Shown here piece after piece: positions 2-18,849 of a stretch of DNA of 64,000 bases. The notes beneath the pieces are model-generated. The model did no database searches, had not been told where the DNA came from, and saw nothing but the letters and a program-made list of their open reading frames with translations. The translations under genes were made by a program, and so were the position numbers. Origin of the DNA: an uncultured Solirubrobacterales bacterium. Its GTDB lineage: Bacteria; Actinomycetota; Thermoleophilia; Solirubrobacterales; 70-9. The stretch's first letter is position 1. Each line of letters starts with the position of its first letter. The DNA is taken from NCBI GenBank assembly GCA_963697695.1, contig OY969094.1:2415958-2479957 (forward strand), read 5' to 3'.

Positions 2-1288
2 GACGGCAACCGCATCTTCTTTGCGGCGTCTCCCACCGTTGGGAACGACACCGAACTCCATGCCTACATGCGCGAGGATCAGTCGCAGACGTTCGAGCTT
101 TCGCTTTCGGAGCGTGGACCCTGTCCAGCCGCGCCAGAATGCAGCAAGGTCGGGTCATTCCAGCTTGCCAGCAAGGATGGATCCGTGGCTTTCATCAGCA
201 ACACCAATCCATATGACCAGGGGGGCTTTTATTCCGCGCCCCTGACTGATGATTCTGATCCAAATGCAGAATGCTGCGATCTGTACCGTTGGGAGCGCAA
301 CGCACCGTTCGGTGAACGGCTGACGAACATTACCTCTTCAGATGGTCAAGGGGGATACATGGGGGTCGCTGGTTCCTCCGACGACGCCAGCCGGGTCTAT
401 TTCACCGACTCCGGCGTGTTGGCGCCGGGCGCCCTCAGGGGTCTGCGCAACCTCTATCTTTGGCAGCTGGGGTCTGGGGTCAGGTTCGTTGCCACCTTGG
501 CTCCTTCGGATGAAGGGGTGACCGGGACCAACCGAACCAGGTCCTCTGATCCCGACGCGTTCAAGGACGCTCGCGTGAGCCCGGACGGCGCCTACCTGCT
601 GTTCGCGTCCCGCGCACGACTGACCTCCTACGACACGGGGGGTCATAAGCAGATTTACCGCTACGACGCTTTGCAGGACGAGCTGACCTGCATCTCCTGC
701 AATCGCCGAACCGGTTCGGCGATTGCCGACGCAGTCCTGGGATCTTTCGCCGAGATCAAAACGAGTAAAGGCTTGGCTGTGAAGAGTCCGATGCCTGCCA
801 TCTGGTTGCCACGTAATCTCTCCTCAGACGGTCGCACGGTGTTCTTCGACACGCGCGAAGCGTTGGTCCCCACCGACAGCAACGGGAAGGTCGACGTCTA
901 TAGGTGGCGGGATGGTCAGGTAGGGCTGATCTCCAGCGGCAATAGCGCTACCGATTCCAGTTTCCTCGACGCAAGCAGCTCTGGAGACGACATCTTCTTC
1001 ACCACCCGAGAGCCGCTGGTTCGATCGGACAGCGACACGGTGATCGATGTCTATGACGCTCGTGTCAATGGAATGCTGGAGCCGCCCGTGGCTCAGCCCT
1101 GCGTAGGAGATGACTGTCAAACGACTCCGTCGCCGCCACCGGCTTTTCAGACACCGGGAAGCAGCACCTTCTCCGGCCTTGGAAACCCATCCGCGAAGAA
1201 AGCCAAAGCGAAGAAAAAACAAAACAAGCGAAAGCGCAGGGCACAGCGGAGCAAAGGAAGGCATCACCATGCCCAGGGGCAGTCGTGA
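2..1288 (+). CDS. secreted TolB/PD40-like beta-propeller repeat protein, 5' end outside the window
   Basis: The frame is open from base 2 (DGNRIFFAAS...), so the ATG at 68 is internal. Recurring 'SPDG/SSDG ... vfF' and 'DVYRW / DVYDA' strands are typical of PD40-type propellers. Strong GC3 bias. Ends in a Lys/Arg-rich tail. Confidence 0.6.
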   Translation, partial: DGNRIFFAASPTVGNDTELHAYMREDQSQTFELSLSERGPCPAAPECSKVGSFQLASKDGSVAFISNTNPYDQGGFYSAPLTDDSDPNAECCDLYRWERNAPFGERLTNITSSDGQGGYMGVAGSSDDASRVYFTDSGVLAPGALRGLRNLYLWQLGSGVRFVATLAPSDEGVTGTNRTRSSDPDAFKDARVSPDGAYLLFASRARLTSYDTGGHKQIYRYDALQDELTCISCNRRTGSAIADAVLGSFAEIKTSKGLAVKSPMPAIWLPRNLSSDGRTVFFDTREALVPTDSNGKVDVYRWRDGQVGLISSGNSATDSSFLDASSSGDDIFFTTREPLVRSDSDTVIDVYDARVNGMLEPPVAQPCVGDDCQTTPSPPPAFQTPGSSTFSGLGNPSAKKAKAKKKQNKRKRRAQRSKGRHHHAQGQS

Positions 1289-1314
1289 AGAGAAGAAAAG
1301 CTGAGGAGAGAAGA

Positions 1315-4231: not shown

Positions 4232-4316
4232 GAGTCACTGAATCGGCACGTTTGGGTCTAGTCCCGCGCGTTGGAGCGGGACAGCATCGACCTCCAATCG
4301 ACTGAAGGAGGCTTCG

Positions 4317-4556
4317 ATGTTCTATGCGCTGCTGGGGTACCTGCACGCGGCTGTGGCGAGAAGGGTGCAAACGATTCGCCTGCTCGCTGGAGAGCGGGGG
4401 CAGGGGACGGTCGAGTACGTGGGGCTGATCCTGCTCGTCTCGCTGCTGATGGTGGGGATGGTTGCCGCGATGAAAGGTTTCAATAGAAACTTTAGTAAGA
4501 CCCGAAACTTATATTGCCGACCGGACGCAGGCGATCAGGACAGCTCAAGGCACTGA
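4317..4556 (+). CDS. flp: Flp/Fap-family pilin paralog whose C-terminus is replaced at a repeat junction (possibly a pseudogene)
   Basis: GAAGGAGG RBS. Has the G-X4-EY prepilin motif (RG|QGTVEY) followed by the hydrophobic helix VGLILLVSLLMVGMV. Parallels the intact copy at 27168 up to ...MKGFN, then diverges into the AT-rich repeat (RNFSKTRNLY...). Confidence 0.6.
   Translation: MFYALLGYLHAAVARRVQTIRLLAGERGQGTVEYVGLILLVSLLMVGMVAAMKGFNRNFSKTRNLYCRPDAGDQDSSRH
4482..4527 (+). repeat. AT-rich conserved element, copy A (shortest; forms the junction with flp)
   Basis: AATAGAAACTTTAGTAAGACCCGAAACTTATATTGCCGACCGGACG. Shares the core with the copies at 9340, 12502 and 18195. Confidence 0.8.
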
Positions 4557-4568
4557 TGTCCGGTACGC

Positions 4569-5630
4569 GTGGTTTCCTCCCTTGGTATGCCTTTTGCGGC
4601 TTCCTTCTGGTTTATTGACCTGCCCTGGTGGGCCTTCTGGTCCCTGGTCGCAGTCGTCGTGTTGGTGGGCGGCTTTGTCCTCTGGTTCCTCTGGGACGAA
4701 TGGGGAACCTGGCGGCTGACGCGCGGGGTTAACGGCCCTGACGATGAGGACATGCCCTCGAAGATCGTTTACCCCTATTACGTCGAGAGCGGCAGCCTGC
4801 GCGACCTGGCGCACACGGTCAAGCTCGACTTGCCGACCGGGAAACACATCACCAAGTCCAAGAAATTCGGCTTCAATATTAAGGGAACTGGGGGGGAGAG
4901 CGGAGACAGCGAGACCGAGGAATACGGTGGCCAATTGCCGCTCTTGGAGCTGGCTGAGAGGGTCGAGGAGAGCGGAATGTACGGCGGGGACAGTCCTGCG
5001 AGACGGGTAGCTGACGCGGCATCTGTTTCTGATGAAGGCGCGCTTTCCGCTGCGATTGAGCAAATCCAGCAGGATTTCCCGACGACTTCCCAGACTGCGG
5101 AGCTACTTTCCCACGTCCAAGACGCTTTCAGCGGTGAGCGGGTCGAGGCGTTGGCAGCCAAGAAGCGCGAGGAGTTCGAGAACATTGCCAAACGTAATCA
5201 ACTGCTGGTCTTCAAAGGTCAGTTCGCCTTCAAAGAGGTCGGTCGAGACGGCTGCGGGCCGACCTTGAAATTGACGCACTTCAACCCGACTCCTGGCTAC
5301 ATCTCACCGCGCGGTGCCAATAACGAAGACGACCTACGCGCAGACCTGATTCCGCTCCCCGAAGGCGTTGGCCTCGACGTAACTCTGCCTGATGGCAAAG
5401 CGTTGACTCCTGCCGGAGGCGAGCGCATCCTGCGCGGCGAGCCGCTTTACGCCGGCCTCATCGCGCACAGTCCCAGCTTCAATTCCGAGACCGGCAGGCT
5501 GACCTGCTCTGCATGGGCGATATGGGGCGAGAACACGCCCGACTGGAATGAGTTGGCCCACTACCGCTACGGCGGACGAGGCGGCCCCTACGGCCCTGCC
5601 ATGGGTGCTCAGCCCGGCTATGGCTGCTGA
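4569..5630 (+). CDS. membrane-anchored hypothetical protein
   Basis: Hydrophobic, Trp-rich N-terminus (FWFIDLPWWAFWSLVAVVVLVGGFVLWFLW), then a soluble region with no motif I recognise. GTG start at 4569 (ATG at 4587 is an alternative). Good GC3 bias. Confidence 0.5.
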   Translation: MVSSLGMPFAASFWFIDLPWWAFWSLVAVVVLVGGFVLWFLWDEWGTWRLTRGVNGPDDEDMPSKIVYPYYVESGSLRDLAHTVKLDLPTGKHITKSKKFGFNIKGTGGESGDSETEEYGGQLPLLELAERVEESGMYGGDSPARRVADAASVSDEGALSAAIEQIQQDFPTTSQTAELLSHVQDAFSGERVEALAAKKREEFENIAKRNQLLVFKGQFAFKEVGRDGCGPTLKLTHFNPTPGYISPRGANNEDDLRADLIPLPEGVGLDVTLPDGKALTPAGGERILRGEPLYAGLIAHSPSFNSETGRLTCSAWAIWGENTPDWNELAHYRYGGRGGPYGPAMGAQPGYGC

Positions 5631-6018
5631 GTAGAGCTCGCCTGAGTCCGCTTATCGCTTTGGTGCGCCGCTCTCTCTGAAAATGTTCCGTGAAGTCGTC
5701 ATTCGCTCCCGCTTGTCGGGGCTAGCGGTTTCCGCACGCGCCGATGGAGCCTCGGCAGCCGCACCGGGTAAAAAGCAGTGCAAGGATCGCCAGGCGGAAT
5801 CGACAAGAAGAAGCGTCAGGCAAGGAGGCGATGCATCAGGAGGGCGAGGGGCAGCCGCTCGACCGAAGTAGGGGTCGTCATCGTCGGGCCCCCGACCGCC
5901 GCTCAATCCGGCTCCGCCGTGACAAGACTGCCAAGGCAGAACACGATCCGCACGGGGAGTCGATACCGCAGACGCGCAGTGTCGCCCGACTCCACTCGCC
6001 TACGATCCTGCTGATGAC

Positions 6019-7082
6019 TGTTGTAGTTCCTCACAACGTTGTTCAATCCGGGCCTCCTTGAAGGCTGGGGGTGTCGAGCCACCCACCCAACAAGGAGACA
6101 CCGGATGGACATCCACGCTAACGCCCGCACCTGCCCGAACAGCCGCAGGCTGCTGGTCGGGCGCATCGAAGAGGAGGGCTGGTCGCTGATGGTGGCGGCC
6201 GAGGCCGCCGGCATCAGCGAGCGCAGCGCCCGCAAGTGGCTGTCTCGCTGGCGGGCCGAGGGTGAGGTGGGGCTGCTGGATCGCAGCTCTGCTCCGAGGC
6301 GGGTGCCATCCCGCCTCCCAGCCGACCGCCTGGAGGCGATCGAGGCGCTGCGGCGGCTGCGGATGACAGCGGCGGAGCTCGCCGAGGTCCTCGGAATGGC
6401 ACTCTCGACGGTGTCCAGGTGGCTGGCGCGGATCGGGCTGGGCAAGCGCAGCCGACTCACTCCGCCAGAGCCACCCAACCGCTACGAGCGAAAGCGTCCC
6501 GGAGAGCTGATCCACGTCGACGTCAAGAAGCTCGCGCGGATCAGTGCCCGGGGCGCCGGGCACCGGGTGAGCGGCAACCGCAAGAGCCAGTTCGAACGCC
6601 GCTCCGGCTCCAATCGCAGGCGGGTCACCGGCTGGGAGTTCGTCCACGTCTGCGTCGATGACGCCACCCGCCTCGCCTACGTGGAGGTCTTGCCTGACGA
6701 GAAGGGCGCCACCGCGGCAGGGTTCCTGCGCCGCGCCGTCGGCTGGTTGAAGGGAATGGGAGTCGAGGTCGAGCGGGTGCTCTCAGACAACGGCTCCTGT
6801 TATCGCTCCGGCGTCCACGCCGAAGCTTGCGCGGAGCTCGGCATGCGCCACATCTTCACCCGCCCCTACCGGCCGCGAACCAACGGCAAGGCCGAGCGCT
6901 TCATCCAGACGCTCACCAACCGCTGGGCCTACGGGGCCATCTACGGCTCCTCGGCCGAGCGAGCCGGGGCGCTGCCCGGCTGGCTCGATCACTACAACTT
7001 CAGGAGACGACACGGCTCCCTTGGCCACAGGCCGCCTGCGGCTCGGCTTGCCGAGCTGGAACAACGTGCTGAGTAACTACAG
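6019..7082 (+). mobile_element. IS481-family insertion sequence, copy 1
   Basis: Ends ...TGTAGTTCC (6022-6030) and GTAACTACAG (7073-7082) are inverted. CTAG lies immediately right of the element (7083-7086). The first ~60 bp resemble those of copy 2 at 49763. Confidence 0.75.
6105..7076 (+). CDS. IS481-family DDE transposase (HTH + rve integrase core)
   Basis: AAGGAG RBS then ATG at 6105. Contains ...IHVDVKKL..., WEFVHVCVDDATRLAYVEVL, DNGSCYRS, YRPRTNGKAERF. Collinear with the second copy at 49856-50820. Confidence 0.85.
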   Translation: MDIHANARTCPNSRRLLVGRIEEEGWSLMVAAEAAGISERSARKWLSRWRAEGEVGLLDRSSAPRRVPSRLPADRLEAIEALRRLRMTAAELAEVLGMALSTVSRWLARIGLGKRSRLTPPEPPNRYERKRPGELIHVDVKKLARISARGAGHRVSGNRKSQFERRSGSNRRRVTGWEFVHVCVDDATRLAYVEVLPDEKGATAAGFLRRAVGWLKGMGVEVERVLSDNGSCYRSGVHAEACAELGMRHIFTRPYRPRTNGKAERFIQTLTNRWAYGAIYGSSAERAGALPGWLDHYNFRRRHGSLGHRPPAARLAELEQRAE

Positions 7083-7105
7083 CTAGTCAGGACGCCGACG
7101 GACCG

Positions 7106-9082
7106 ATGATGCCTAAACGCAAGCGCACCCAGAGGGTCGAAGAAGAGTCGCGACGGGTCTTCCCCGAAGTGCTTGAAGAGCGCTTTCTGTTTCGCGACGA
7201 GGTCCCCGACAACGGGATCGACGGGAGCGTCGAGGAGTTCGAGAAGAACGACCAGGCGACCGGACTGCGCTACTCGGTCCAGCTCAAGGCGACTGACGAG
7301 GAGAAATTGGGGACGGCGCTGAAGCGCTCGATCCCGATCGGCCACGCCGCCTACTACAACGCCCACCCGCTCCCGATCTTGATGGTGCGCTACATGGCGA
7401 GCACCGGCGACTTTTACGTCCGCTGGTGGCACAACCCACTGCCGGGGAAGTCGGCACCGAAGTCGGAGGCCAAGACGTTCACCTTCCATTGGTCCGAGGA
7501 CGACAAGTTCGAGGAAAGTGACTCGACGCGGATCGCGGAGGAGGCTCGCGGCTTCCTCGAACTGCGCTCGAGCACGCTGAAGCTTCCGGTCCAGCTCGAG
7601 GCGGTCGTCGAGGACCCGGACTGGGAACTCACTGCGGCGGAGATCGAGCTGGCCCTCGACGCCGCGGCGCGTGAACGCGCCGACGTCGTCGAGATGAAGT
7701 CCGCCGAGGCGAACGGCAAGATCGGCGTCCGAGGTCAGAGACTCGAGATCGAGCTGTTTGGAACGCTCGTAGCGAGCATGGAGCTCGAAGAGGACTACGA
7801 CCCCGGCGATGAAGCCGAGCAGCTGGCGGTCGACCTGATGGCGTTGACAGCGACCGCCCTCGCGCGCTGGGGGCAGAACGACCTAGCCGCGCGGATGACG
7901 CCTACCTTTTTCCCGGGCTCGACGCTTTCACGAGATCCGCAGGCGGCCCTGCTTCTCTCGGGGGCGATGACCGCAGCGAGGCGCGTGAGCGACGCCCTGG
8001 AGGTCGCCGAGGAGATCGACAGGACGGCGAAGGATTCAGAGATGAACACGAGCGTGCTGTTCACTCTGGTCTCACACCGACATGCAGCCTCGCTGAGCAC
8101 GGCGGAGAAAGCCGAGTACGCCACAGCGATCGAACGCCGGATTGAGAGGCGGAATTCGGACGGGGAAGCGGTCGAGGCCTCACGCGAAATGATCTCGCTC
8201 GGGAATCTCCACCGTTATGACCAGGATGGTCCGAAGGCGCTGGAGCTGTATGAGGGGGCCGCTAAGCTCGACCCTGACTATCTCAAGCGCGTTCACTACT
8301 GGCGCGAACTTGGCGGAGTCCTCTTTTTCTGCGATCGCTTCGCCGAGTCGGCCGATGCGTACGCCAAGGCGATCGAGCTCGGCGGAGAGGCATGGGATGA
8401 GATCCTGCGGGCCGATGCGCTGATGTTCGCTGGCGAGTACAGGGAGGGTCGCGAGGCTCTCGCGGAGGTAATCCCAGAGCTGCAGAGTGTCGAGCGGGGA
8501 GCGGAGTATCCGCTCAAGCACGTGATGCTTAACCACCTGGTAGAGGAGATGGGACTCGAGAGTCAGACCCGCGACATCGCCGGAGCCTACGCGGTTATGG
8601 GCGAGGTTATCTCGATGGACCGCGAGACCGAACGCGAGGCCCAGGAGGCCCGGAGTCGGGAGGCGCTCGAGCTCGACGCCCTCAACCCGGGCGCCTGGTC
8701 CTTCTTGGCGACCGTTCACGAAGAGGACGGCGATATCGCGACCGCTGGGCTGTTCTTGCTCTTCACCGCGCTATGCCGGCCTGAAGTCCCGCAGGCCTGG
8801 GCGCTCTCGTTCCTGCACCTAATGAACAGTGGAGAGAACGTGCTCCTGCCTCTGATCGTCGTCACCGGGAACCGGATGACTGGGCGCAAAGTGCTGCCGG
8901 AGATCAACCGCCTGATCAGGAGAGGTCCTGTCGACCCCAAGGACCGCGACCGGATGATTCGCAGCCTGAAGAAATTGGTCGACGATCTTGCCGATCCGAA
9001 GACTGACGGCTTCAAAATGAGGATGGTCGGTGACGAAGTGACCAACGTTGACGTTCCGGGGCAGGAACTCGGGGACCCCTAG
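7106..9082 (+). CDS. DUF4365-like (PD-(D/E)xK nuclease fold) N-terminal domain fused to TPR-like helical repeats
   Basis: The N-terminus D-NGIDGSVEEFE....TGLRYSVQLKAT matches the D.GID..xE...vQvK signature I associate with DUF4365. The middle and C-terminal parts have TPR-like repeats (ALELYEGAAKLDPDYLKRVHYWRELGGVLFFCDRFAESADAYAKAIELG). Confidence 0.55.
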   Translation: MMPKRKRTQRVEEESRRVFPEVLEERFLFRDEVPDNGIDGSVEEFEKNDQATGLRYSVQLKATDEEKLGTALKRSIPIGHAAYYNAHPLPILMVRYMASTGDFYVRWWHNPLPGKSAPKSEAKTFTFHWSEDDKFEESDSTRIAEEARGFLELRSSTLKLPVQLEAVVEDPDWELTAAEIELALDAAARERADVVEMKSAEANGKIGVRGQRLEIELFGTLVASMELEEDYDPGDEAEQLAVDLMALTATALARWGQNDLAARMTPTFFPGSTLSRDPQAALLLSGAMTAARRVSDALEVAEEIDRTAKDSEMNTSVLFTLVSHRHAASLSTAEKAEYATAIERRIERRNSDGEAVEASREMISLGNLHRYDQDGPKALELYEGAAKLDPDYLKRVHYWRELGGVLFFCDRFAESADAYAKAIELGGEAWDEILRADALMFAGEYREGREALAEVIPELQSVERGAEYPLKHVMLNHLVEEMGLESQTRDIAGAYAVMGEVISMDRETEREAQEARSREALELDALNPGAWSFLATVHEEDGDIATAGLFLLFTALCRPEVPQAWALSFLHLMNSGENVLLPLIVVTGNRMTGRKVLPEINRLIRRGPVDPKDRDRMIRSLKKLVDDLADPKTDGFKMRMVGDEVTNVDVPGQELGDP

Positions 9083-9330
9083 TGTCCGGAGTCGGCGTTG
9101 AAGCCTTCGGCCCCATCGCTGGCCAGAATGAAGTTCTCAAGTCGGGTCGAATTGCGGACTTGAACCGATCTCCTGCGCCGCCTACGTTTTCCGATGGCCA
9201 GCTTCGAAAGCCACTACACGGAGATGCTTGATATGGGCTTTGAGGCAGTGGACGAGTAAAAGCCGCCTCGAGCGTGATCGTGAGAATTCCTGTTCATCTC
9301 GGCGCCGGTCCCTTTTGAGACTGCACTGTG

Positions 9331-9425
9331 CCCTGCCTGAATAGAAACCCAAATAAGACCCGAAACCTACCGCCGATATCGGACGGCATGAATCTGACTC
9401 TGAGGGCCGGTTCGTCTCGTAGCGG
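9331..9425 (+). repeat. AT-rich conserved element, copy B (long form)
   Basis: CCCTGCCTGAATAGAAACCCAAATAAGACCCGAAACCTACCGCCGATATCGGACGGCATGAATCTGACTCTGAGGGCCGG..TCTCGTAGCGG. Collinear with copy D over about 95 nt. Confidence 0.8.
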
Positions 9426-9505
9426 CCAGGAGGAGGAAGGCGCGTGGGGCGTTTACCAAATGGCTCTGGAGAGCGCTCGTTGGCACATTTACTTGACGCT
9501 CTATG

Positions 9506-9522
9506 ATTAATTTGAGATACTC
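9506..9522 (+). promoter_or_regulatory. ATTAATTT-N1-AGATACTC motif upstream of the S1 protease gene (a TTGACG -35-like hexamer lies at 9493)
   Basis: The same two words occur at 18850-18881 upstream of the 2366-aa protease-bearing gene. Both sit in AT-rich islands just 5' of an AGGAGG RBS. Confidence 0.4.
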
Positions 9523-9583
9523 AGCCTAATCTTACGCAAGGAGGCGTCAGATGATTGGTCAGGCTTCCAGCGCCTGATGAGCG

Positions 9584-11752
9584 GTGATTATCCGCTTCAC
9601 ATTTCGGCCTAGATTCGCACCTCTGACGATGCTGTCCTTGGTGTGCATGGCCAGCATGGCAACCACTGCATCAGCTCAAGCTGCAGGCACTGGGGCACCT
9701 AGGGCTTTCCTCTTTCGTGCGGAGGTTTCCCGGTACGCACATGAGCACGAAATCCCGTTCCAGATTGCGGCCAAGCGGTTGGAATGGCAGCGCCTTGCTC
9801 CAAGCCTTCAGGAAAACGCAAGACAGCGGCTTGGCTCTAGTTTTGGAGGAGTTTGGATCGACAGTGGGAGCAATGGTCGAATTAAGCTGGGAATCACAGC
9901 TTTGAGTCCTGCATTGCTCACGCAGGCATATGCCACTGTAGCGAGTTCCGACCTCGCCGAAGCCGTGGACATTGTCCAGGTTCCCCACAGTGAAGCGAAA
10001 CTCAACGAAATCTCAGACTGGCTTGGTGCACGACTCGCCGACGTTAATACGGGTGCCAGGGCCACTCTTACGTTTGGAATTCTGCCCGACCTCAGCGTAG
10101 TCCGAATATCTCTTCCCCAAGGCACGATCCTTACCCACGCACAGCAGGAGCTTGTTGCCGACGCACAGAGAATCTATGGCAAGGCCATCACGACTGATTT
10201 CTATGAAGGTCGGATACAGCCAGAGGCATGCAGCTATCCGTTTTGTACATCACCGCTTAGGGCAGGAATTAAGGTAGGTCCATCTGGGGAAGAAGGATGC
10301 ACCGCTGCATTCCTAGCCCGAGGAAAAGAAGACGGCAAACTCTATCAGCTTACTGCGGGTCACTGCGACGCCGGAGCTGTAGGGTGGGGCACTAGATTCG
10401 CCAGCAAAGAACCTTGGGAAGAAATCGGGCCCTGGGCCAAAACCTCGATCAGTGAATCTGGGGATTCTGGTGTATATCAAGTAACCAATGACTTGGTGTG
10501 GAATGCACGTCCCTGGGTTTACTGGGCAGGAACTTCTGAAGGCTATCCAATCTTCTCGGATGCAGATCCTGTTAAAGGACAAGAAGTCTGCAAGAGTGGT
10601 GCTTTTTTTGGCACAACTAGCTGCGGTATAGTGACTGAAGTATCGGTCACTGTCGAATTCAATTACGGGCCCCCCATTGGCGTTAAAAAAGTAAAAGTTT
10701 TTCGGGCAAAATACTGTTCAGTCCCTGGCGATAGTGGATCACCTGTTCATTATTACGGCGTAGCGTATGGTATCCACACAGGAGGTTCAGGGGAATGCAA
10801 CAAGTACTTCTCTCGTATCCGTGCTGCAGAGGAAAAACTAAACGTCGATGTTAGGCATGAATCCGAATGCGACCCCTTGTTCGAATCGCCAATCAAGGTT
10901 GGCGATATGACCGGAGATGGAAAGGGGGATGTATTCCAGCTCCCCGGTGAAGGGAACGGCTGGGCATGGGAATCCAAAGGATCGAGCTATTCAGCGCTCG
11001 GGAAAATCGGCAGCGGGTTTGGAAGCACGTATCAGGACCGAGTTGGAGATATGGATGGAGACGGGGACGATGACCTTTTCCAGATGACCGATACGGGCGA
11101 TCTCTATGCATGGGAATCCAAAGGATCGAGCTATTCAGCGCTCGGGAAAATCGCGAGCGGCTTCGGCAGCGCTTGCGATACGCGACTGGCGGATATCAAT
11201 GGCGATTCGAAGGACGACATTCTTCGGTTTACCAACGATGGCTATGCCTACGGATGGCTCGACGGTAAAAGCGGCTACGAAGCACTGGGGCAAGTAGGAA
11301 CCGGGTTTGGCAGCACTTACCAGGATCGATCGGGCGACATGGATGGAGACGGGGACGATGATCTCTTCCAGATCACCGACGAAGGCAACGTCTATGTCTG
11401 GCACTCGAATGGGTCGAGCTACGCCGGCAAAGGCTTGGTGGCCACCGGTATTGGTAAAGCCTCCGAAGTCCGCATCGGCGACAGGGACGGAGACGGGGAC
11501 GATGATCTCTTCCAGATCACCAATGGCGGCGATGCATATGCATGGGAATCCAAAGGATCGAGCTATACCTATCTTGGGAAAGTAGGAACTGGATTTGGAT
11601 TGACTCGCGAAATCCGACTGGTCGATATTGACGGCGACTCGGATGCCGACATCCTCAAGTTCGCAGACGATGGATTTGCGTCTGCGTGGACCTTCAACGG
11701 CAAAACCTATACCTCGATCGGCAAAGTAGGCAGCGGGTTTGGGAAAGCATGA
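9584..11752 (+). CDS. secreted S1 (chymotrypsin/alpha-lytic-type) serine protease with a pro-region and six C-terminal FG-GAP/VCBS-like repeats
   Basis: Signal-like N-terminus. Catalytic motifs LTAGHC, DSGVYQV and GDSGSP. The C-terminal half has six ~48-aa repeats of the form GD(M/R/I)DGDGDDDLFQ...G..YAWESKGSSY..LGK.G.GFG. Confidence 0.8.
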   Translation: MIIRFTFRPRFAPLTMLSLVCMASMATTASAQAAGTGAPRAFLFRAEVSRYAHEHEIPFQIAAKRLEWQRLAPSLQENARQRLGSSFGGVWIDSGSNGRIKLGITALSPALLTQAYATVASSDLAEAVDIVQVPHSEAKLNEISDWLGARLADVNTGARATLTFGILPDLSVVRISLPQGTILTHAQQELVADAQRIYGKAITTDFYEGRIQPEACSYPFCTSPLRAGIKVGPSGEEGCTAAFLARGKEDGKLYQLTAGHCDAGAVGWGTRFASKEPWEEIGPWAKTSISESGDSGVYQVTNDLVWNARPWVYWAGTSEGYPIFSDADPVKGQEVCKSGAFFGTTSCGIVTEVSVTVEFNYGPPIGVKKVKVFRAKYCSVPGDSGSPVHYYGVAYGIHTGGSGECNKYFSRIRAAEEKLNVDVRHESECDPLFESPIKVGDMTGDGKGDVFQLPGEGNGWAWESKGSSYSALGKIGSGFGSTYQDRVGDMDGDGDDDLFQMTDTGDLYAWESKGSSYSALGKIASGFGSACDTRLADINGDSKDDILRFTNDGYAYGWLDGKSGYEALGQVGTGFGSTYQDRSGDMDGDGDDDLFQITDEGNVYVWHSNGSSYAGKGLVATGIGKASEVRIGDRDGDGDDDLFQITNGGDAYAWESKGSSYTYLGKVGTGFGLTREIRLVDIDGDSDADILKFADDGFASAWTFNGKTYTSIGKVGSGFGKA

Positions 11753-11819
11753 TTTGCCCATTCAGCACTACCAGAAACGTGAATAAGTAGCCGCTGGACA
11801 GAGCCCCGGTTTCGGCGAC

Positions 11820-12107
11820 TGGAGTGCCCCCGCTTTGACGGACACCTGAGCGCTGGGTCGTCTGGCCCAGCGGAAAGGATGTCCAGAGATGGAAAAGAGT
11901 GAAAGGGGCCGCGAGGGCCCTGGCCTACCCGCAGCGGATTAACGTCGGCGATCTTCGAGTGGATCGAGGTTTTCTACAACCGCGAGAGAAGACACTTCAC
12001 GCTGGGGTACCTCTCTCCCGAGCAGTATGAGCAAGAATCTCGATCCAAAGTTGAAAAGAAAGAGAGTCGACCAAATCAAGCGTGTCCGGAGAAGCGGGGG
12101 CACTCCA
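11820..12107 (+). mobile_element. 288-bp internally deleted IS3-family (IS407-like ends) element
   Basis: Ends are TGGAGTGCCCCCGCTTTGACGGACAC (11820-11845) and GTGTCCGGAGAAGCGGGGGCACTCCA (12082-12107). They form a TG...CA inverted repeat with 22 of 26 positions matching. The interior carries only the 3' end of a transposase orfB. Confidence 0.7.
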
Positions 12108-12130
12108 CGCCTAGTTGGAGTCGAAGATGA
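11936..12130 (+). pseudogene. IS3-family transposase C-terminal fragment
   Basis: Translation ...AIFEWIEVFYNRERRHFTLGYLSPEQYE... is the conserved tail of the rve domain of IS3 OrfB. There is no upstream catalytic region or start codon. Confidence 0.7.
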
Positions 12131-12321
12131 ACGAGCCACCAAAACGAACTTGCTACGACTGCGGAGGGGTTGGGACTAAGACCTGCCCTGTATGTCAGGG
12201 GTATCGTTTTTGTCAGAATCCGAACCCGCCCCCACCTGACGTCGCCTGTACCGTGTGCGGAGCTGCTGGGCAGGTCTTTTGTAATAACTGCAGCGGGAGA
12301 GGGTGGGTCTACGGCTCGTAG
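12127..12321 (+). CDS. stand-alone DnaJ-type cysteine-rich zinc-finger miniprotein (64 aa)
   Basis: Four CxxCxGxG-like units: CYDCGGVG, CPVCQGYR, CTVCGAAG, CNNCSGRG. ATG at 12127 (a TTG at 12115 is listed). Confidence 0.5.
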   Translation: MNEPPKRTCYDCGGVGTKTCPVCQGYRFCQNPNPPPPDVACTVCGAAGQVFCNNCSGRGWVYGS

Positions 12322-12492
12322 CCCGAGTCCAGGCCGCCAACGCTTCTAGCTGGCAAGCCATGGACCCAGCGGGCATAGGTCTTGTATCGAATTCGCGCCG
12401 CGACCGAGTCGTTGTGTGGCTCAATCCGGACGCTCGCTGACGGGGCAAAAGGGCCGGAATGCAACCGAGGTCGAGCAACAAGTTGGACCGTA

Positions 12493-12558
12493 CCCTGCCT
12501 CAATAGAAACCTTAGTAAGACCCGAAACCTATCGGCGATATCGGATGAATCTGACTTT
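12493..12558 (+). repeat. AT-rich conserved element, copy C
   Basis: CCCTGCCTCAATAGAAACCTTAGTAAGACCCGAAACCTATCGGCGATATCGGATGAATCTGACTTTG. Confidence 0.8.
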
Positions 12559-12701
12559 GATCAGCCTCGGGACGGCCTTCGAGGCCTCAGTCCATGCAGT
12601 CGCTGTTGCTCTGGACTTCGGGGGACACTTTCTCTACGAGCGCCTCCAGCGTTGAGGTTGCAGAGCGTGGACTCGAAGTGGTCCAGGTGTCCGCGGCCTA
12701 A

Positions 12702-12731
12702 CTATTGATCAAATAGATGTCTATTGATCAA
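12702..12731 (+). promoter_or_regulatory. two direct copies of CTATTGATCAA (19-nt period), candidate operator
   Basis: Copies at 12702-12712 and 12721-12731, each containing the palindrome TTGATCAA, 36 nt upstream of the GTG at 12767, in an AT-rich patch. Confidence 0.35.
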
Positions 12732-12766
12732 CAGATGCCTTTTACAAAGGTCTAGCTTCGCATGAC

Positions 12767-13558
12767 GTGCTGGGGAGAGGCAACCGATTGGGAGCTGGGA
12801 GGCTCGGGGTGGCGATCGTGCTGGGTTGCGCGATCGCTCTGGTCGTCGTAGCCGTTGCCGGCGGCGGTTCTACGCCTGCCCCGGACACCGGGGAACGTCG
12901 AGCCCCAGAGTTCGCAGCCGATGCTTCCGGCAGTGAATTCAGACTCGCCAGGGATGAGCCGGCTCGTTCAACGCGATCTGCCGCCGACTCTAAGCACTGG
13001 TCCCCAGTCTTCAATGATGAAGCTCTTCCTTGCACCGCCCCGCGCGAGCCCGTCAACTTCGAAACCTTCTCCGTGGGTCCGTCCATTGAGGGGCTAGCCC
13101 TGACTCATGCCGAACGACGCTGCGGCGGCGGTCCGGTTGCTACGCGCGTCAACTACGTCTCCTACATATATGGCGACTGTGAGATCTCCGACGGCGCGAC
13201 TGGTTGCCAGCCTCCGCTCGAGATACAGACCTGGCCCGCATGCCAGCGCTTTCTCGCCAAGTACTCCTTCAGAGGTAGGCCGCTGCCGCACAGGTTTCTG
13301 CCGGGCCCCAGCGGCGCCAAGGTGGTCGAATTCAACTTCGCCTTTGACAAGCGCATCGAGGTCTACACCGGCTCCGCCACGGTGGTGATCTTCGCTACCG
13401 ACCGGGCTCGCGCCATCGAAGCGGTGGAGATGCTTCGTCTGGAGGGGAGGCGGGAGCCGCCCGCGAGCAACTCAACGGAATTGGACAGCGGCCTCCCGGA
13501 CAGGCTCGAACCGCCCGCGCAGGGCTCGATGGAAGGGAACCTCTCATGCCAAGCCTAA
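12767..13558 (+). CDS. membrane-anchored/secreted hypothetical protein
   Basis: N-terminal hydrophobic segment LGVAIVLGCAIALVVVAVAGGG. Overlaps the next gene by 13 nt, suggesting an operon. No recognisable domain. Confidence 0.5.
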   Translation: MLGRGNRLGAGRLGVAIVLGCAIALVVVAVAGGGSTPAPDTGERRAPEFAADASGSEFRLARDEPARSTRSAADSKHWSPVFNDEALPCTAPREPVNFETFSVGPSIEGLALTHAERRCGGGPVATRVNYVSYIYGDCEISDGATGCQPPLEIQTWPACQRFLAKYSFRGRPLPHRFLPGPSGAKVVEFNFAFDKRIEVYTGSATVVIFATDRARAIEAVEMLRLEGRREPPASNSTELDSGLPDRLEPPAQGSMEGNLSCQA

Positions 13559-16500
13559 GCTCCAATCGCTCACCAGTCGGCATCGCGGCGGCTGTCGCAG
13601 TGACGGTGTTGATGGCAATCGTTCTCTTCGGGTCGCCCGCCGCCACTGCGGAAACCATCGGAGAAGAAGACGTCCAATGGGGATGGGGGGTCGGTGAGGG
13701 CCCGGCCGGAGACTACGACTTCCCCAGCGACGATTGCACGGGCAACCACACCGATCCCGTCGGAGTGCTCTTCATCGGAAAGAGGGCCGGGGTGACGAGC
13801 GTCCAGAGACATATCGAAATCCATAATCGCTGGGATGCGGGTGTCGGCGACACGGGTTCCAATCACTCTCTGTTCGTTCGCAACGATGAAGGAGGGCTCG
13901 AATGCAAAGAGATGGACGCGTCGAGCGCAAATGCCGACGACGCCAGCGATCGAATGCACGTGCGCCTTTGGCACATACCCGCCACCGAGTCTCCCCAGGT
14001 GATGACGGTCGGCACCCCCCATCACGAGGATTTTGTCGTCGGCAACGGTTGCAATACGCATGCGGTCGATCCCAACGGATCGGTCGGAACGAACCACGGG
14101 CCGAATGCGAGCGGCTTCGACTGGGCACGCCACGAGCTCAAGTGGTACTTCTCGCTCCCCAACTCCTGGCACCCCAGTCACTTCCCACAGCATTACGGCG
14201 GAAGGCACCACGTTGAAACCGAGTATTGGGGCAACAGCGCGAACTTCACCCAATGCACGGGCAAAAAAGCCGGGAGCGACGGGTTCGGCGTGGTCATCTG
14301 GATCAATCGCAAGACCGATCCGAGAACCCAGCCGGCATCTGCCTCGCAGAGCAACGCGACACTGTTGGGCGGATTCCAGGGCGATGGAACGACCAACGAA
14401 TGGTGGTTCGGCTACGGGACCAAATCCGCTCAGGGACCCTCGGGATATCAGAAAACGACCTCAGTCAAAACGAGCTCCGCAGTAGCCGAGGTCTCCGTCA
14501 ACGCACCGGTCTCCGACCTGAAGCCGAACACGAGGTATTACGCGAGGCTGTTCATCAAAACCGCCGAAGGCGAGGTTGAGGAAGGAGACGAGGTCGCATT
14601 CACGACCCAGGCGCCCCCGATCGCCGCCTACTCCTTCGACGCAGGCGAAGGGACGCTCGCCGAGGACTCCGCCGGCGGCCACGACGGCACCATCAAAGGC
14701 GCCCAGTGGGTCCGCGGCAAGTTCGGCGGCTCACTCTCCTTCGACGGCGAAAACGACTGCATCTCGGTCCCCGAAAGCGCCCAGCTGCAGTTCCTCGAAG
14801 ACGAAGAATTCACCCTCGAGGCCTGGGTGCGGCCCAAGGACGGGGAAGAAATCCAGGCGATCGTCACCCAGGAAGACGACAGCGCAGCCGAAGAAGAAAG
14901 GCCTTTCTCCTACTCGCTGCTGGTGGGCGGCGAAGAACCCCCCAAGGGCTGGCTGCGAAAAAGCGGCGAAAGCGGCCACATCGTGGTTGCCGAAGGCGAA
15001 CCGCTGCCGCTGAACGCCTGGTCGCACATCGCCTTCGTCAACGACGGCGCGACCCTGCGCTTCTACGTCAACGGCGAGCTCAGCGCCGAGCGGTCCACCC
15101 TCCCGCTTGCGGCTGCCGAAGGGCCGCTGACGATCGGTTGCCTCGACAACATGGGCATCTTCTTCGACGGCCGCATCGACGAGGTCCGCGTCTATGACCG
15201 GGCGCTCGAGGCCGGGGAAGTGGCCACCGACAGGTCGACGCCGATCGTGACGCCACGAGCCGGGCCTGTTGCGGCCTACTCCTTTGACAGAGGTCAGGGT
15301 CAGATTGCTGACGATCTCGTGGGAGAGCATCACGGCACCATCAAAGGCGCCCAGTGGGTCCGCGGCAAGTTCGGCGGCTCACTCTCCTTCGACGGCGAAA
15401 ACGACTGCATCTCGGTCCCCGAAAGCGCCCAGCTGCAGTTCCTCGAAGACGAAGAATTCACCCTCGAGGCCTGGGTGCGGCCCAAGGACGGGGAAGAAAT
15501 CCAGGCGATCGTCACCCAGGAAGACGACAGCGCAGCCGAAGAAGAAAGGCCTTTCTCCTACTCGCTGCTGGTGGGCGGCGAAGAACCCCCCAAGGGCTGG
15601 CTGCGAAAAAGCGGCGAAAGCGGCCACATCGTGGTTGCCGAAGGCGAACCGCTGCCGCTGAACGCCTGGTCGCACATCGCCTTCGTCAACGACGGCGCGA
15701 CCCTGCGCTTCTACGTCAACGGCGAGCTCAGCGCCGAGCGGTCCACCCTCCCGCTTGCGGCTGCCGAAGGGCCGCTGACGATCGGTTGCCTCGACAACAT
15801 GGGCATCTTCTTCGACGGCCGCATCGACGAGGTCCGCGTCTATGACCGGGCGCTCGAGGCCGGGGAAGTGGCCACCGACAGGTCGACGCCGATCGTGACG
15901 CCCCAGGCGCCCCCGATCGCCGCCTACTCCTTCGACGCAGGCGAAGGGACGCTCGCCGAGGACTCCGCCGGCGGCCACGACGGCACCATCAAAGGCGCCC
16001 AGTGGGTCCGCGGCAAGTTCGGCGGCTCACTCTCCTTCGACGGCGAAAACGACTGCATCTCGGTCCCCGAAAGCGCCCAGCTGCAGTTCCTCGAAGACGA
16101 AGAATTCACCCTCGAGGCCTGGGTGCGGCCCAAGGACGGGGAAGAAATCCAGGCGATCGTCACCCAGGAAGACGACAGCGCAGCCGAAGAAGAAAGGCCT
16201 TTCTCCTACTCGCTGCTGGTGGGCGGCGAAGAACCCCCCAAGGGCTGGCTGCGAAAAAGCGGCGAAAGCGGCCACATCGTGGTTGCCGAAGGCGAACCGC
16301 TGCCGCTGAACGCCTGGTCGCACATCGCCTTCGTCAACGACGGCGCGACCCTGCGCTTCTACGTCAACGGCGAGCTCAGCGCCGAGCGGTCCACCCTCCC
16401 GCTTGCGGCTGCCGAAGGGCCGCTGACGATCGGTTGCCTCGACAACATGGGCATCTTCTTCGACGGCCGCATCGACGAGGTCCGCGTCTATGACCGGGCG

Positions 16501-17199
16501 CTCGAGGCCGGGGAAGTGGCCACCGACAGGTCGACGCCGATCGTGACGCCACGAGCCGGGCCTGTTGCGGCCTACTCCTTTGACAGAGGTCAGGGTCAGA
16601 TTGCTGACGATCTCGTGGGAGAGCATCACGGCACCATCAAAGGCGCCCAGTGGGTCCGCGGCAAGTTCGGCGGCTCACTCTCCTTCGACGGCGAAAACGA
16701 CTGCATCTCGGTCCCCGAAAGCGCCCAGCTGCAGTTCCTCGAAGACGAAGAATTCACCCTCGAGGCCTGGGTGCGGCCCAAGGACGGGGAAGAAATCCAG
16801 GCGATCGTCACCCAGGAAGACGACAGCGCAGCCGAAGAAGAAAGGCCTTTCTCCTACTCGCTGCTGGTGGGCGGCGAAGAACCCCCCAAGGGCTGGCTGC
16901 GAAAAAGCGGCGAAAGCGGCCACATCGTGGTTGCCGAAGGCGAACCGCTGCCGCTGAACGCCTGGTCGCACATCGCCTTCGTCAACGACGGCGCGACCCT
17001 GCGCTTCTACGTCAACGGCGAGCTCAGCGCCGAGCGGTCCACCCTCCCGCTTGCGGCTGCCGAAGGGCCGCTGACGATCGGTTGCCTCGACAACATGGGC
17101 ATCTTCTTCGACGGCCGCATCGACGAGGTCCGCGTCTATGACCGGGCGCTCGAGGCCGGGGAAGTGGCCACCGACAAGGGGTCGCCGATCGAAGGGTGA
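13546..17199 (+). CDS. secreted protein with an N-terminal unknown region, an FN3-like domain and four tandem LamG (concanavalin-A-like lectin) domains
   Basis: Signal-like N-terminus. Each repeat has the LamG_3-type pattern (G..W.H.A.V.DG..LR.YVNGEL.......G.L.IG......FFDGRIDEVRVYDRAL). The FN3-like segment ends ...LKPNTRYYARLFIKTAEGEVEEGDEVAFTT. Confidence 0.7.
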   Translation: MPSLSSNRSPVGIAAAVAVTVLMAIVLFGSPAATAETIGEEDVQWGWGVGEGPAGDYDFPSDDCTGNHTDPVGVLFIGKRAGVTSVQRHIEIHNRWDAGVGDTGSNHSLFVRNDEGGLECKEMDASSANADDASDRMHVRLWHIPATESPQVMTVGTPHHEDFVVGNGCNTHAVDPNGSVGTNHGPNASGFDWARHELKWYFSLPNSWHPSHFPQHYGGRHHVETEYWGNSANFTQCTGKKAGSDGFGVVIWINRKTDPRTQPASASQSNATLLGGFQGDGTTNEWWFGYGTKSAQGPSGYQKTTSVKTSSAVAEVSVNAPVSDLKPNTRYYARLFIKTAEGEVEEGDEVAFTTQAPPIAAYSFDAGEGTLAEDSAGGHDGTIKGAQWVRGKFGGSLSFDGENDCISVPESAQLQFLEDEEFTLEAWVRPKDGEEIQAIVTQEDDSAAEEERPFSYSLLVGGEEPPKGWLRKSGESGHIVVAEGEPLPLNAWSHIAFVNDGATLRFYVNGELSAERSTLPLAAAEGPLTIGCLDNMGIFFDGRIDEVRVYDRALEAGEVATDRSTPIVTPRAGPVAAYSFDRGQGQIADDLVGEHHGTIKGAQWVRGKFGGSLSFDGENDCISVPESAQLQFLEDEEFTLEAWVRPKDGEEIQAIVTQEDDSAAEEERPFSYSLLVGGEEPPKGWLRKSGESGHIVVAEGEPLPLNAWSHIAFVNDGATLRFYVNGELSAERSTLPLAAAEGPLTIGCLDNMGIFFDGRIDEVRVYDRALEAGEVATDRSTPIVTPQAPPIAAYSFDAGEGTLAEDSAGGHDGTIKGAQWVRGKFGGSLSFDGENDCISVPESAQLQFLEDEEFTLEAWVRPKDGEEIQAIVTQEDDSAAEEERPFSYSLLVGGEEPPKGWLRKSGESGHIVVAEGEPLPLNAWSHIAFVNDGATLRFYVNGELSAERSTLPLAAAEGPLTIGCLDNMGIFFDGRIDEVRVYDRALEAGEVATDRSTPIVTPRAGPVAAYSFDRGQGQIADDLVGEHHGTIKGAQWVRGKFGGSLSFDGENDCISVPESAQLQFLEDEEFTLEAWVRPKDGEEIQAIVTQEDDSAAEEERPFSYSLLVGGEEPPKGWLRKSGESGHIVVAEGEPLPLNAWSHIAFVNDGATLRFYVNGELSAERSTLPLAAAEGPLTIGCLDNMGIFFDGRIDEVRVYDRALEAGEVATDKGSPIEG
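14608..17176 (+). repeat. in-frame tandem duplication: a 1296-bp unit repeated twice (the second copy about 25 bp short), each unit made of two 648-bp LamG-encoding subrepeats
   Basis: CAGGCGCCCCCGATCGCC starts at 14608 and again at 15904. All six-frame ORFs recur unchanged at +648 or +1296 (for example 14706, 15354, 16002, 16650; minus strand 14731-15333 equals 16027-16629). Confidence 0.9.
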
Positions 17200-17255
17200 C
17201 CAGCGACCTGGTTTACGCGTCTCCACCCTAGGACCAGCGCCGCACGGCTCACGGC

Positions 17256-17468
17256 TCAGTCCCAAGCGGCGAGGGCGTCATCGACGCTCTCAAAGACAGC
17301 CCGTTCTGGGTGAGACCCGTGATTGAAAGAACTCAATGCACCTGCGTCGAGCAGCCGTAAACAGCGATTCGCTGCCCCTGTCCCGCCATTCTGATTGTAG
17401 GCGTGGATGATCACCGCAATGGCCGTGGAGTCGATGAACTCAGGTTTGAGAGAGGTCGAATTCGGCTG
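17256..17468 (-). pseudogene. STAS-domain (anti-sigma-factor antagonist-like) C-terminal fragment
   Basis: Translation ...PEFIDSTAIAVIIHAYNQNGGTGAANRCLRLLDAG.....VFESVDDALAAWD*. There is no start codon. It begins directly, in frame, after the TAA of the upstream membrane-protein gene. Confidence 0.45.
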
Positions 17469-17873
17469 TTAGCTGAGCTTGTCCCGGAGCCTGCGGACCC
17501 ATCTTTCGGAGACCATCCGATCGAATACGGCGCGCAGCAAGAAGCCGAGCGAGTAGATGGCGAGCAGGAATCCGGTCCCGAAGATGACGAGGGCTGGGTA
17601 GGGATCCTCGTGGAAGGGATAGACGTAGTCGGTCGCTTCGTGCAGGTAGAACTCGACGGCGAAGGGGACAAGGGCAAGCGATAGCGCCCACCAGCGGTTG
17701 ACGAGCGCGACCGCGAGGACCGGGAGGACAAAAAATGCCCAGTCAACAGTAGTGCTGAACACGATCGTGCCGAGCGCCCCGTTTCGGTCGAGATCGGACG
17801 CACTCGCGTAGGTGTAGGCCCCCACCCCAAGTGCCGCGACAATGATGATGGCTCCACGACCGACGTTGCTCAT
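17469..17873 (-). CDS. small integral membrane protein (about 134 aa)
   Basis: From MSNVGRGAIIIVAALGVGAYTY... there are four hydrophobic segments. The upstream part of the listed ORF (to 17993) looks non-coding. Confidence 0.5.
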   Translation of the reverse strand: MSNVGRGAIIIVAALGVGAYTYASASDLDRNGALGTIVFSTTVDWAFFVLPVLAVALVNRWWALSLALVPFAVEFYLHEATDYVYPFHEDPYPALVIFGTGFLLAIYSLGFLLRAVFDRMVSERWVRRLRDKLS

Positions 17874-18182
17874 TCGGAAGGAGTACCCCTGAGGCCTTGA
17901 TTGGTTGCCGGCGCTACCGTGGACCGCGGAGATTCTCATTCGTCCACGAGGGCCGGGAGGGAATCTTTCAAGGCAGGAAGGGCTACCGGTCAAGCACTGA
18001 CGAGTGGTTAGGCAGTGAGCATGAAAGGCAGCTGGACTGCCTCCGGGCTCTCAGATCGATCCCCCGGGGGGATGGCAGACAGACACATCGAGACCGGCTC
18101 GATCATGCCGACTGCCAACAACGCCTTCCGCGAATGCGGCTGGTAGACCGCCTAAGGGGACTGCGAAGCTGCGCCATCTCTT

Positions 18183-18281
18183 CCCTGCGTCTCGAATAGA
18201 AACCTTAGTAAGACCCGAAACCTATTACTGATATCGGACGGCATGAATCCGACTCTGAGTGCCGGATTTATCTCGTAGCGG
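18183..18281 (+). repeat. AT-rich conserved element, copy D (long form)
   Basis: CCCTGCGTCTCGAATAGAAACCTTAGTAAGACCCGAAACCTATTACTGATATCGGACGGCATGAATCCGACTCTGAGTGCCGG..TCTCGTAGCGG. Confidence 0.8.
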
Positions 18282-18849
18282 TGTGGAGGGGGGAAGCGGG
18301 TGAGGCGAGGGTCAGAGAAGTCAGAGAAGGCGGTTCTCGACCTTTTCATCCCCTGGACATTCCCTCATCCGCACCGGCTGGTGAGCCGCCTGCCCGTCAG
18401 TCCAAGGCAGATACCACAGAACCCTGAACGGGTTCGCGACAAGGATCAATCGTTGGTCCGGTTTCAATTGTTTGGGCAATCGCTGTAGGTGGCCCTATGT
18501 GCAGAAGGCGCATCCAATCGTTGTTCGTCTGTGGGGCTTCCCCCATGTTGCGCGCTCTGGTGCTCCTTCGAAGGCTTCAATCTGTTCTCGAGCCTTTCAG
18601 GCTTGCTCCTTGTCAGGTGTGAGCGAGATGCCTGGCCATCAGCGCTCACCCGTTCGATCTGCTGCATAGCTGGGGGAGTAGCCGGTCCATAGATCCTTGA
18701 TGCTCGCGCTTCGGAAGTCGCTCCACATAGGTGCCCCGACCTAGGGACCGCGTGGGACAAAACGTCGAATCTAACGTGGTTAGCCAGGACCCCATGAACA
18801 GTCTTTGTCAAAACCCTACTTTTCATATTGCGCTACCCGCCTTCCAAGC

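Follow-up and report, generated by a model that had tools for sequence, protein, structure and literature searches.

An AT-rich repeat at the flp locus of a Solirubrobacterales genome as the probable attachment-site arm of a family of serine-recombinase elements

We analyzed a stretch of 64,000 nucleotides from the genome of an uncultured Solirubrobacterales bacterium (assembly GCA_963697695.1, contig OY969094.1, positions 2,415,958 to 2,479,957; hereafter the window), in which an AT-rich repeat occurs in four copies, A to D. The 30-nt core of this repeat and about 25 further conserved bases very probably represent one arm, P', of the attachment site of a mobile element integrated by a large serine recombinase (LSR), with copies B to D as further, solitary P' arms within a decayed island. 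By its sequence, copy A is the left attachment junction (attL) of such an element in flp, the Tad-pilus pilin gene. The element seems to belong to a previously undescribed and widespread family of LSR elements in soil Solirubrobacterales that targets flp and is seen here as a decayed island. The site itself is of a known kind; three extra solo copies in one integrase-less island are unusual. The features that define the locus are as follows.

4235 to 4481, plus strand: left flp copy, comprising the promoter region and the first 165 nt of flp; 84% identical to 27086-27334 and matching the flp upstream of RNase PH in relatives.
4482 to 4530, plus strand: copy A, the putative attL junction, with AA at 4482-4483 followed by the island-side P' arm TAGAAACTTTAGTAAGACCCGAAACTTA .. 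CGGACGC; located at the end of flp homology, with the same junction in relatives.
4484 to 27085, no strand assigned: low-GC island of 22.6 kb, bounded by the truncated flp on its left and the complete flp on its right, and delimited by GC profile and gene content.
27086 to 27413, plus strand: complete right flp with its promoter, containing the unoccupied site ..GGGTTC-AA-CGGCAAACAGGGG.. (AA at 27333-27334); the same intact sequence is present in 13 flp genes from relatives.

The left boundary of the island is marked by a 248-nt duplicate in which the flp promoter is followed by the initial 167 nt of the gene (4235-4483 and 27086-27334, 84% identity). Homology of the left copy to flp stops exactly at TTCAA, the start of core A, and the right copy runs to the normal 3' end of the gene. 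The insertion point in flp falls, as written in the left copy, at ..GGTTTC-AA|TAG..; the last ~20 nt of this copy form the host-side (B) arm of the left junction, and a fused open reading frame (ORF; 4317-4556) reads through from flp into the island. An earlier reading of this DNA from its sequence only had placed copy A at the point where the left flp loses its 3' end, which agrees with the end of homology at TTCAA. Relatives carry a single flp, and the window carries two, 84% identical to each other.

All four copies of the repeat lie on the plus strand, at 4482 (A), 9340 (B), 12502 (C) and 18195 (D). When the window was scanned with the pattern AATAGAAACYTTAGTAAGACCCGAAACYTA, no mismatches were found at 4482, 12502 and 18195 and three at 9340; 100 shuffles of the sequence gave no match, so that no copies are expected by chance. 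An nhmmer profile of the four copies revealed neither a fifth copy nor a reverse-strand partner in the 64 kb. The core has 11 G+C among its 30 bases and is located in surroundings of 54-67% GC up to ~27 kb and 68-72% beyond. As read from the pattern matches, it contains an internal direct repeat, GAAACCT..GAAACCT, with an 18-nt period, copy A having GAAACTT twice. Immediately 5' of the core, copies B, C and D have CCCTGC in common; B and D are collinear for ~110-125 nt, with 88% identity over the first 72 nt. The copies diverge by 10-15% and carry indels in the extension that follows the arm, and the P' arms of C and D are identical across 30 nt with unrelated flanks. The next plus-strand ORF starts 57, 214, 235 and 674 nt from the end of the core in A, B, C and D, respectively. 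Most of what the sequence-only reading had said of the repeat is reproduced by these data: four copies in the same orientation, a core of ~35% GC in a GC-rich setting, the GAAACCT repeat with its variant in A, the CCCTGC block in B to D, a long collinearity of B and D (~95 nt in that account) and the lack of an inverted partner. It had also correctly placed each copy upstream of a plus-strand gene, but its distances of 42, 159, 209 and 618 nt do not agree with those measured here.

In relatives, flp is encoded directly upstream of RNase PH, sometimes with the same ribbon-helix-helix (RHH)-PIN pair between them. The RHH-PIN pair and RNase PH downstream of the island in the window match the related loci L003, L202 and L222 (numbers with L denote such loci), and RNase PH (28242-28967) is 86-92% identical to that of uncultured Solirubrobacterales metagenome-assembled genomes. 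Thirteen relatives' loci contain an uninterrupted flp site, ..GGNTTCAACGGCAARCAGGG.., and insertions at the same TTCAA point are found in L005, L007, L008, L126, L163, L217, L222-L227 and L245. Across relatives and metagenomes, more than 40 occupied sites at the identical flp point were found, compared with 13 intact flp sites. The junction word GATGAARGGNTTCAATAG matched at least 120 metagenome contigs; in 35 of the contigs listed (32 distinct), the junction is preceded by flp 5' sequence and followed by a conserved arm. This arm reads TAGATACTTGAGTAAG(G/A)..GGATACTAG-N10-TCGGACGG, where N10 stands for about 10 variable bases, and all four window copies match it, including CGGACGG at about +45. 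Additionally, an independent profile built from 22 foreign arms, with the window sequence excluded, recovers copies A (E = 2e-7), C (3e-5) and D (1e-3), and all of its matches in other loci have flp in front of them. No matches to ATAGAAACNNNNNTAAGACCCGAAAC came from exact scans of the genome contig collection and the metagenome contig collection, neither of which contains the window genome or its exact variant, and a look-up of a 353-aa protein of the window gave no record; in viral contigs, the single match of the junction word and the 14 matches of TAAGACCCGAAACNTA were all chance matches in unrelated low-GC DNA.

The occupied loci connect the arm to a recombinase. At the far end of the islands, on the opposite strand, lies a gene for an LSR of 474-495 aa with Resolvase, Recombinase and Zn_ribbon_recom domains and the N-terminus MKLDGYIRVSR; its sequence matches in the PDB include gamma-delta resolvase, TP901-1 integrase and SPbeta integrase. 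It is present in L005, L007, L008, L126, L202, L204, L217, L218, L222-229 and L245. The family comprises 578 members at E <= 1e-30, almost all from Solirubrobacterales metagenomes, and about 100 protein clusters are at least 69% identical to the L007 recombinase. Identity to the nearest annotated phage serine integrases, from Arthrobacter phages, is only ~30%, and no relatives were found in IMG/VR. The proposal of the sequence-only reading that the repeat is a recombination or cassette-boundary site of an unrecognised mobile system holds in essence for copy A and is plausible for B to D, but the system is a recognised one, with an LSR gene at the other end of the homologous islands.

Complete related elements measure 4.4-11.6 kb. 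Five have both ends (L007, 9.5 kb; L126, 4.4 kb; L163, 8.8 kb; L217, 8.5 kb; L222, 7.5 kb), and L245 holds an 11.6-kb element at the flp/RNase PH locus. Right junctions read CAT..CCCCCCTTACGTTAGAGACTG-AA-CGGCAA.., and the LSR start codon is about 29 nt from the crossover, on the P arm. In the five two-ended elements 13-18 of 28 positions of the P' arm match the reverse-complemented P arm, and GTAAG is present at +12..+16 on both arms of the element site (attP), which gives attP its dyad symmetry. AA is taken to be the crossover because no other dinucleotide at the breakpoint is shared by attB, attP, attL and attR; a directional serine integrase needs a non-palindromic crossover, and AA is non-palindromic. 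The elements encode Replic_Relax or TraG-like genes together with helix-turn-helix regulators and therefore look like integrative mobilizable elements (IMEs) rather than phages; they are integrative and probably mobilizable. Among complete elements, L222 has the P' arm most like that of the window (..TTAAGACCCGAAACATATCGG..ATCGGAC..), and because the left end of L222 shares TTCGTCTC with the extension common to B and D, this extension is the ordinary left end of such elements. A different target gene is split in L205 (9603-15426) and L220 (9602-14971), where recombinases 77-81% identical to the flp-targeting one interrupt an enoyl-CoA hydratase gene. The P' arm there is of the same type (..GTGG-AA-TAGATACTTCACTAAG..), and it looks as if the host site (attB) was retargeted while the attP arm was conserved.

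Two further observations concern these elements. In L008 (CAVUCS010000001, 9740-9890) the right junction joins the P arm to a second point in flp with GT at its centre, 65 nt upstream of the AA site, resulting in a 65-nt duplication of flp; this suggests that related recombinases use two attachment points in flp and that the island is a hybrid. Most P' arms also contain a -10-like hexamer, TANNNT, on the minus strand at +23..+28 from the crossover and pointing toward it, with variants TAGTAT and TATAAT, and TAGGTT in the window (minus strand, 4506-4511, 9364-9369, 12526-12531 and 18219-18224). A candidate ribosome-binding site, GTAAGGGGG, precedes the recombinase start by 8-10 nt on the P arm. 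In the circular form the hexamer would be ~50 nt upstream of the LSR start, and the LSR promoter may be completed only after excision.

Three other views of the repeat were considered. A short AT-rich multicopy repeat inside an island that bears insertion sequences (IS) might be a miniature inverted-repeat transposable element or the solo end of a DDE transposon; the sequence-only reading had put forward the solo end of an unknown transposon. We find this scarcely credible, since the repeat has no inverted partner and no flanking target-site duplication, shows no dispersed copies in the exact-pattern scans of the genome and metagenome collections, and occupies a fixed position in one gene in dozens of genomes, with a serine recombinase and not a transposase beside it. 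An array of the Xer/dif type (IMEX) was rejected because the same sequence forms the junction of LSR-bearing elements. That the repeat is mainly regulatory, a promoter, operator or 5' leader of the surface-protein operons with GAAACCT-N11-GAAACCT as a transcription-factor site, had likewise been raised earlier, and we judge it very improbable. Every copy does precede a plus-strand gene; conservation of the GA(T/A)AC(T/C) repeat and of TCGGACGG is confined to the P' side and exceeds the needs of an LSR half-site; and the minus-strand TANNNT hexamer is conserved at a fixed position. This hexamer, however, points away from the cassette genes, no copy contains a sigma-70-like plus-strand site (16-18-nt spacing), and near B the sole good promoter-like sequence, TTGGCA-16-TATGAT at 9480-9507, comes after the repeat. 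The gene that follows the site is not the same from one relative to another and may have either orientation. There is no Rfam match at the repeat, the sole match in the window being a cyclic di-AMP riboswitch at 42991-43156, and RNAalifold predicts 0 pairs across 20 family arms, giving no sign of a conserved RNA fold.

The favoured explanation can be laid out as a series of steps. The circular form of a complete element would carry attP as an imperfect palindrome around AA. The LSR is expected to recombine attP with the flp site ..ATGAARGGNTTC-AA-CGGCAARCAGGG.., and integration would split flp into a flp-5'/P' junction (attL) and a P/flp-3' junction (attR). The island in the window would be a decayed, locked-in descendant of such an element that has grown to 22.6 kb. 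Copies B to D would derive from further LSR insertions into the resident island, by accretion or at secondary sites, followed by loss of the recombinase ends; as fossil left junctions, each would now head a block of cargo genes. The three copies and the genes considered next are the following.

9323 to 9451, plus strand: copy B, with a 17-nt left arm not from flp, ACTGTGCCCTGCCTG, AA at 9340-9341, the P' arm and an extension of ~85 nt common to D.
9584 to 11752, plus strand: secreted FG-GAP-repeat protein after copy B (Pfam FG-GAP_3), a trypsin-like protease according to one source.
12485 to 12570, plus strand: copy C, with left arm ACCGTACCCTGCCTC, AA at 12502-12503 and the P' arm, and with a 5-nt deletion in the extension; recovered by the foreign-junction profile.
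17469 to 17993, minus strand: membrane-protein gene just left of D, with a homologue at L008 7799-8320 (80% identity by blastn, 66% by tblastn).
18181 to 18307, plus strand: copy D, with left arm TTCCCTGCGTCTCG, AA at 18195-18196 and the P' arm plus extension; recovered by the foreign-junction profile.

Genes next to the copies provide a further link to LSR elements. Homologues of the FG-GAP-repeat protein, with 67-69% identity, are cargo inside the LSR elements L244 and L245, the latter at the flp/RNase PH locus, and the L008 homologue of the membrane-protein gene adjoins the serine recombinase. Since genes after B and left of D are shared with LSR elements, the cassettes appear to be made of LSR-element material. 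On the left side of each of the copies B to D, a 12-17-nt arm that does not come from flp is joined at the same AA as in attL. These arms are not P arms, because they do not have the CTTAC that is present at -16..-12 in all P arms. With respect to half-sites, copy A consists of a recognizable flp B arm and P', and B to D have a clear P' arm only.

Several candidates for the origin of these left arms and of the extension were examined. An extended inverted flp 3' end was rejected, as local alignments were no better than those of shuffles and the position weight matrix (PWM) result was suggestive at most. The left arms of B (9325-9339) and C (12487-12501) differ at three positions, all of them codon third positions in the frame of the AAT that follows, so that both read TVPCLN, and the left arm of D (18181-18194) has an in-frame extra of 3 nt; these features hint at a coding origin. 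A second target gene encoding ..VPCLN.. was sought in 2.5 Mb of related loci and not found, and the same 2.5 Mb contain no other CCCTGC-N-AATAG junctions. No interrupted gene is identifiable at copies B to D. The extension of B and D was also considered as a decayed 5' end of the LSR gene (ATGAAT.. versus ATGAAGCTC..) and rejected: the arm has P'-specific motifs, and the likeness to L222 is one of DNA sequence and falls in another reading frame.

We consider it most likely that B to D are fossil left junctions of further LSR-element insertions whose recombinase ends were lost. Certain observations, nevertheless, weigh against the explanation as a whole. The right flp is complete with its promoter and not a bare 3' part, which simple integration does not give; possible sources are tandem flp paralogues followed by a deletion, or a 5' copy of flp carried by the element. 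The 64 kb contain no LSR or remnant of one (tblastn with two family LSRs, best E = 0.5), a P-arm motif search of the window found no P arm or attR, and nothing indicates that the four window sites are active at present. LSRs normally recombine only attP with attB, so that serial accretion is non-standard and would need secondary sites. The left arms of B to D correspond neither to the B arm of flp nor to the P arm. In the outward direction they show a weak likeness to the flp B' arm CGGCAAGCAGGGCAC, which is suggestive at most (per-position PWM p = 7e-4 for B with a 3-nt shift and 3e-3 for D in register, uncorrected for 9 shifts). Internal P' copies are absent from the about 15 related islands that were read; these include L204 and L218, which show no left junction within 10 kb from the recombinase. 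Finally, conservation of the arm over ~55 nt, with the repeated GA(T/A)AC motif and with TCGGACGG at +44..+52, exceeds a half-site of ~25 nt and is unexplained. Some of these points have a place in the explanation: because the window has no LSR and no right junction, the island is read as a decayed element, and with no LSR, P arm or attR and with a complete right flp it could not be excised by the normal attL x attR route. The left arm that B to D share is not accounted for by fossil junctions, and the array of solo arms is the one unusual feature and is only partly explained.

Two other histories of B to D deserve consideration. The first dispenses with site-specific recombination and takes the left-end sequence of ~50-125 nt as a homology anchor or segmental duplicate, with cargo swapped by homologous or illegitimate recombination and by IS elements. 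The island does hold an IS481 element and an IS3 remnant, B to D are alike over far more than an att half-site (up to ~125 nt in B and D), and the grouping of the copies changes between left arm, core and extension, a pattern expected from gene conversion or recombination. We nonetheless regard this history as unlikely, because three copies begin at a sharp shared left arm joined at the crossover AA of attL, and random breakpoints would hardly arrive there three times. The second history makes the flp locus a working LSR-driven platform for cassette capture, comparable to SCCmec and Enterococcus cassette chromosome (ECC) islands or to the integron. An LSR encoded elsewhere in the genome and acting in trans would add, remove and stack recombinase-less cassettes behind the strong pilin promoter; B to D would be functional recombination sites, each cassette would start with a hybrid of a short B-type arm, AA and P', the intact flp would be regenerated distally, and an attL-like site would serve as landing pad. 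Four sites in one orientation, each at a cassette boundary, would fit such a platform, as would the co-orientation of nine of ten island genes with flp, the 30 identical nt of the P' arms of C and D despite unrelated flanks, the left arm of ~17 nt common to B and C (about the length of a half-site) and the intact attB kept at the right end; LSR-driven cassette islands with recombinase-less remnants are known (PMC6222049). On the other hand, no LSR is encoded in the 64 kb, CTTAC at -16..-12, the half-site signature of every P arm, is absent from the left arms, no comparable array occurs in the related islands, and the divergence of 10-15% with indels in the extension looks like decay. We therefore hold a working platform to be quite doubtful and retain the reading of B to D as remnants of LSR-element insertions.

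The remaining gene content of the island and its surroundings is given here for completeness. One mobile gene is a feature of its own.

6039 to 7076, plus strand: IS481-family transposase (Pfam rve, rve_3, LZ_Tnp_IS481), a separate IS in the island, unrelated to the repeat.

A C-terminal remnant of an IS3-like transposase, also unrelated to the repeat, lies at ~11930-12050 and is flanked by 26-nt inverted repeats (11820-11845 and 12082-12107). The sequence-only reading had stated that neither an integrase nor a transposase is adjacent; the region does contain these two transposase sequences. The low-GC part of the window encodes secreted or surface proteins, namely the FG-GAP protein that resembles a protease, a four-repeat LamG protein and an RHS/DUF6531 toxin. 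The four repeats of the LamG gene (at 14623-17200) are in tandem, 648 nt long and 88-100% identical. The toxin gene contains an internal duplication (at 21737-23074) with 1038-nt spacing that is identical over at least 300 nt, and a small lipoprotein-like ORF after it (26004-26441) is a candidate immunity gene. To the left of flp, the window (68-4164) encodes two large secreted proteins of 406 and 959 aa without Pfam matches. Homologues with 33-38% identity, in the same order, precede flp in metagenome contig L192 and follow RNase PH in L058, and the pair may be a module linked to the pilus locus. The riboswitch mentioned above (ydaO/yuaA leader, RF00379, 81 bits) is on the minus strand, upstream of minus-strand ORFs that end near 42988.

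A puzzling repeat is in this way accounted for without a new mobile system. The family offers a precisely mapped attB in flp, reconstructed attP sites, relatives that target an enoyl-CoA hydratase gene and sites in dozens of metagenomes, and natural LSR/att pairs are raw material for genome-engineering integrases. Insertion in flp truncates a Tad-pilus pilin gene and could tie carriage of the element to surface or adhesion phenotypes, and secreted proteases, LamG proteins and an RHS toxin arrive with the islands. If the array of solo arms did arise by LSR accretion, supposedly one-way, two-site enzymes can build cassette arrays; if the locus were a platform for cassette capture, it would be an LSR analogue of integron or SCC accretion.

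Among known systems, composite SCC arrays with several repeats invite comparison with the window, where four direct repeats each mark a change of gene content. SCCmec and ECC, mobilized by CcrAB at rlmH, are likewise serine-recombinase islands at one conserved gene with variable cargo, direct att repeats that bound the cassettes, recombinase-less remnants and internal IS elements (PMC6222049). Their repeats, however, hold a full shared core and leave the target gene intact, whereas in the window only AA is shared with attB and flp is truncated at the left junction; the internal sites of the window have non-canonical left arms, and no recombinase is present. Accretion of ICESt1 and ICESt3 and the formation of cis-mobilizable elements (CIMEs) also add DNA site-specifically, so that cargo blocks come to be divided by att sites that all face the same way (PMC5704250). 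There the enzymes are tyrosine recombinases with long identical cores, so that attL and attR stay substrates; the island in the window has no attR left, and accretion would be non-standard for an LSR. SCC/ECC and CIMEs are the closest analogies for the array, but both fail on a defining point, as the internal repeats of those systems retain the core that attB also has, and they possess a recombinase. Integration at pseudo-attB sites would be expected to give junctions like B to D, composed of a foreign left arm, the crossover and P', and phiBT1 integrates at secondary sites that are only partly like attB (PMC5937489). Scattered pseudo-attB sites would not look like three sites in a single island whose left arms of 12-17 nt are almost alike. 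The large serine integrases (phiC31, Bxb1, TP901-1, A118 and SPbeta) and the gene-interrupting IMEs with serine recombinases have the same three-domain recombinase as the family described here. The differences from phage integrases are a recombinase only ~30% identical to theirs, Replic_Relax or TraG-like genes in place of phage genes, and a P' side conserved over ~55 nt instead of ~25. We know of no description of the flp pilin gene as the target of a serine integrase. In both groups the integrase gene abuts attP, attP is an imperfect palindrome of ~50 bp around a non-palindromic 2-bp crossover, insertion interrupts a protein-coding gene, typical members leaving no long duplication, and hybrid attL and attR sites are left at the ends, as is general for the attachment sites of serine integrases and IMEs (PMC10083194, PMC5704250).

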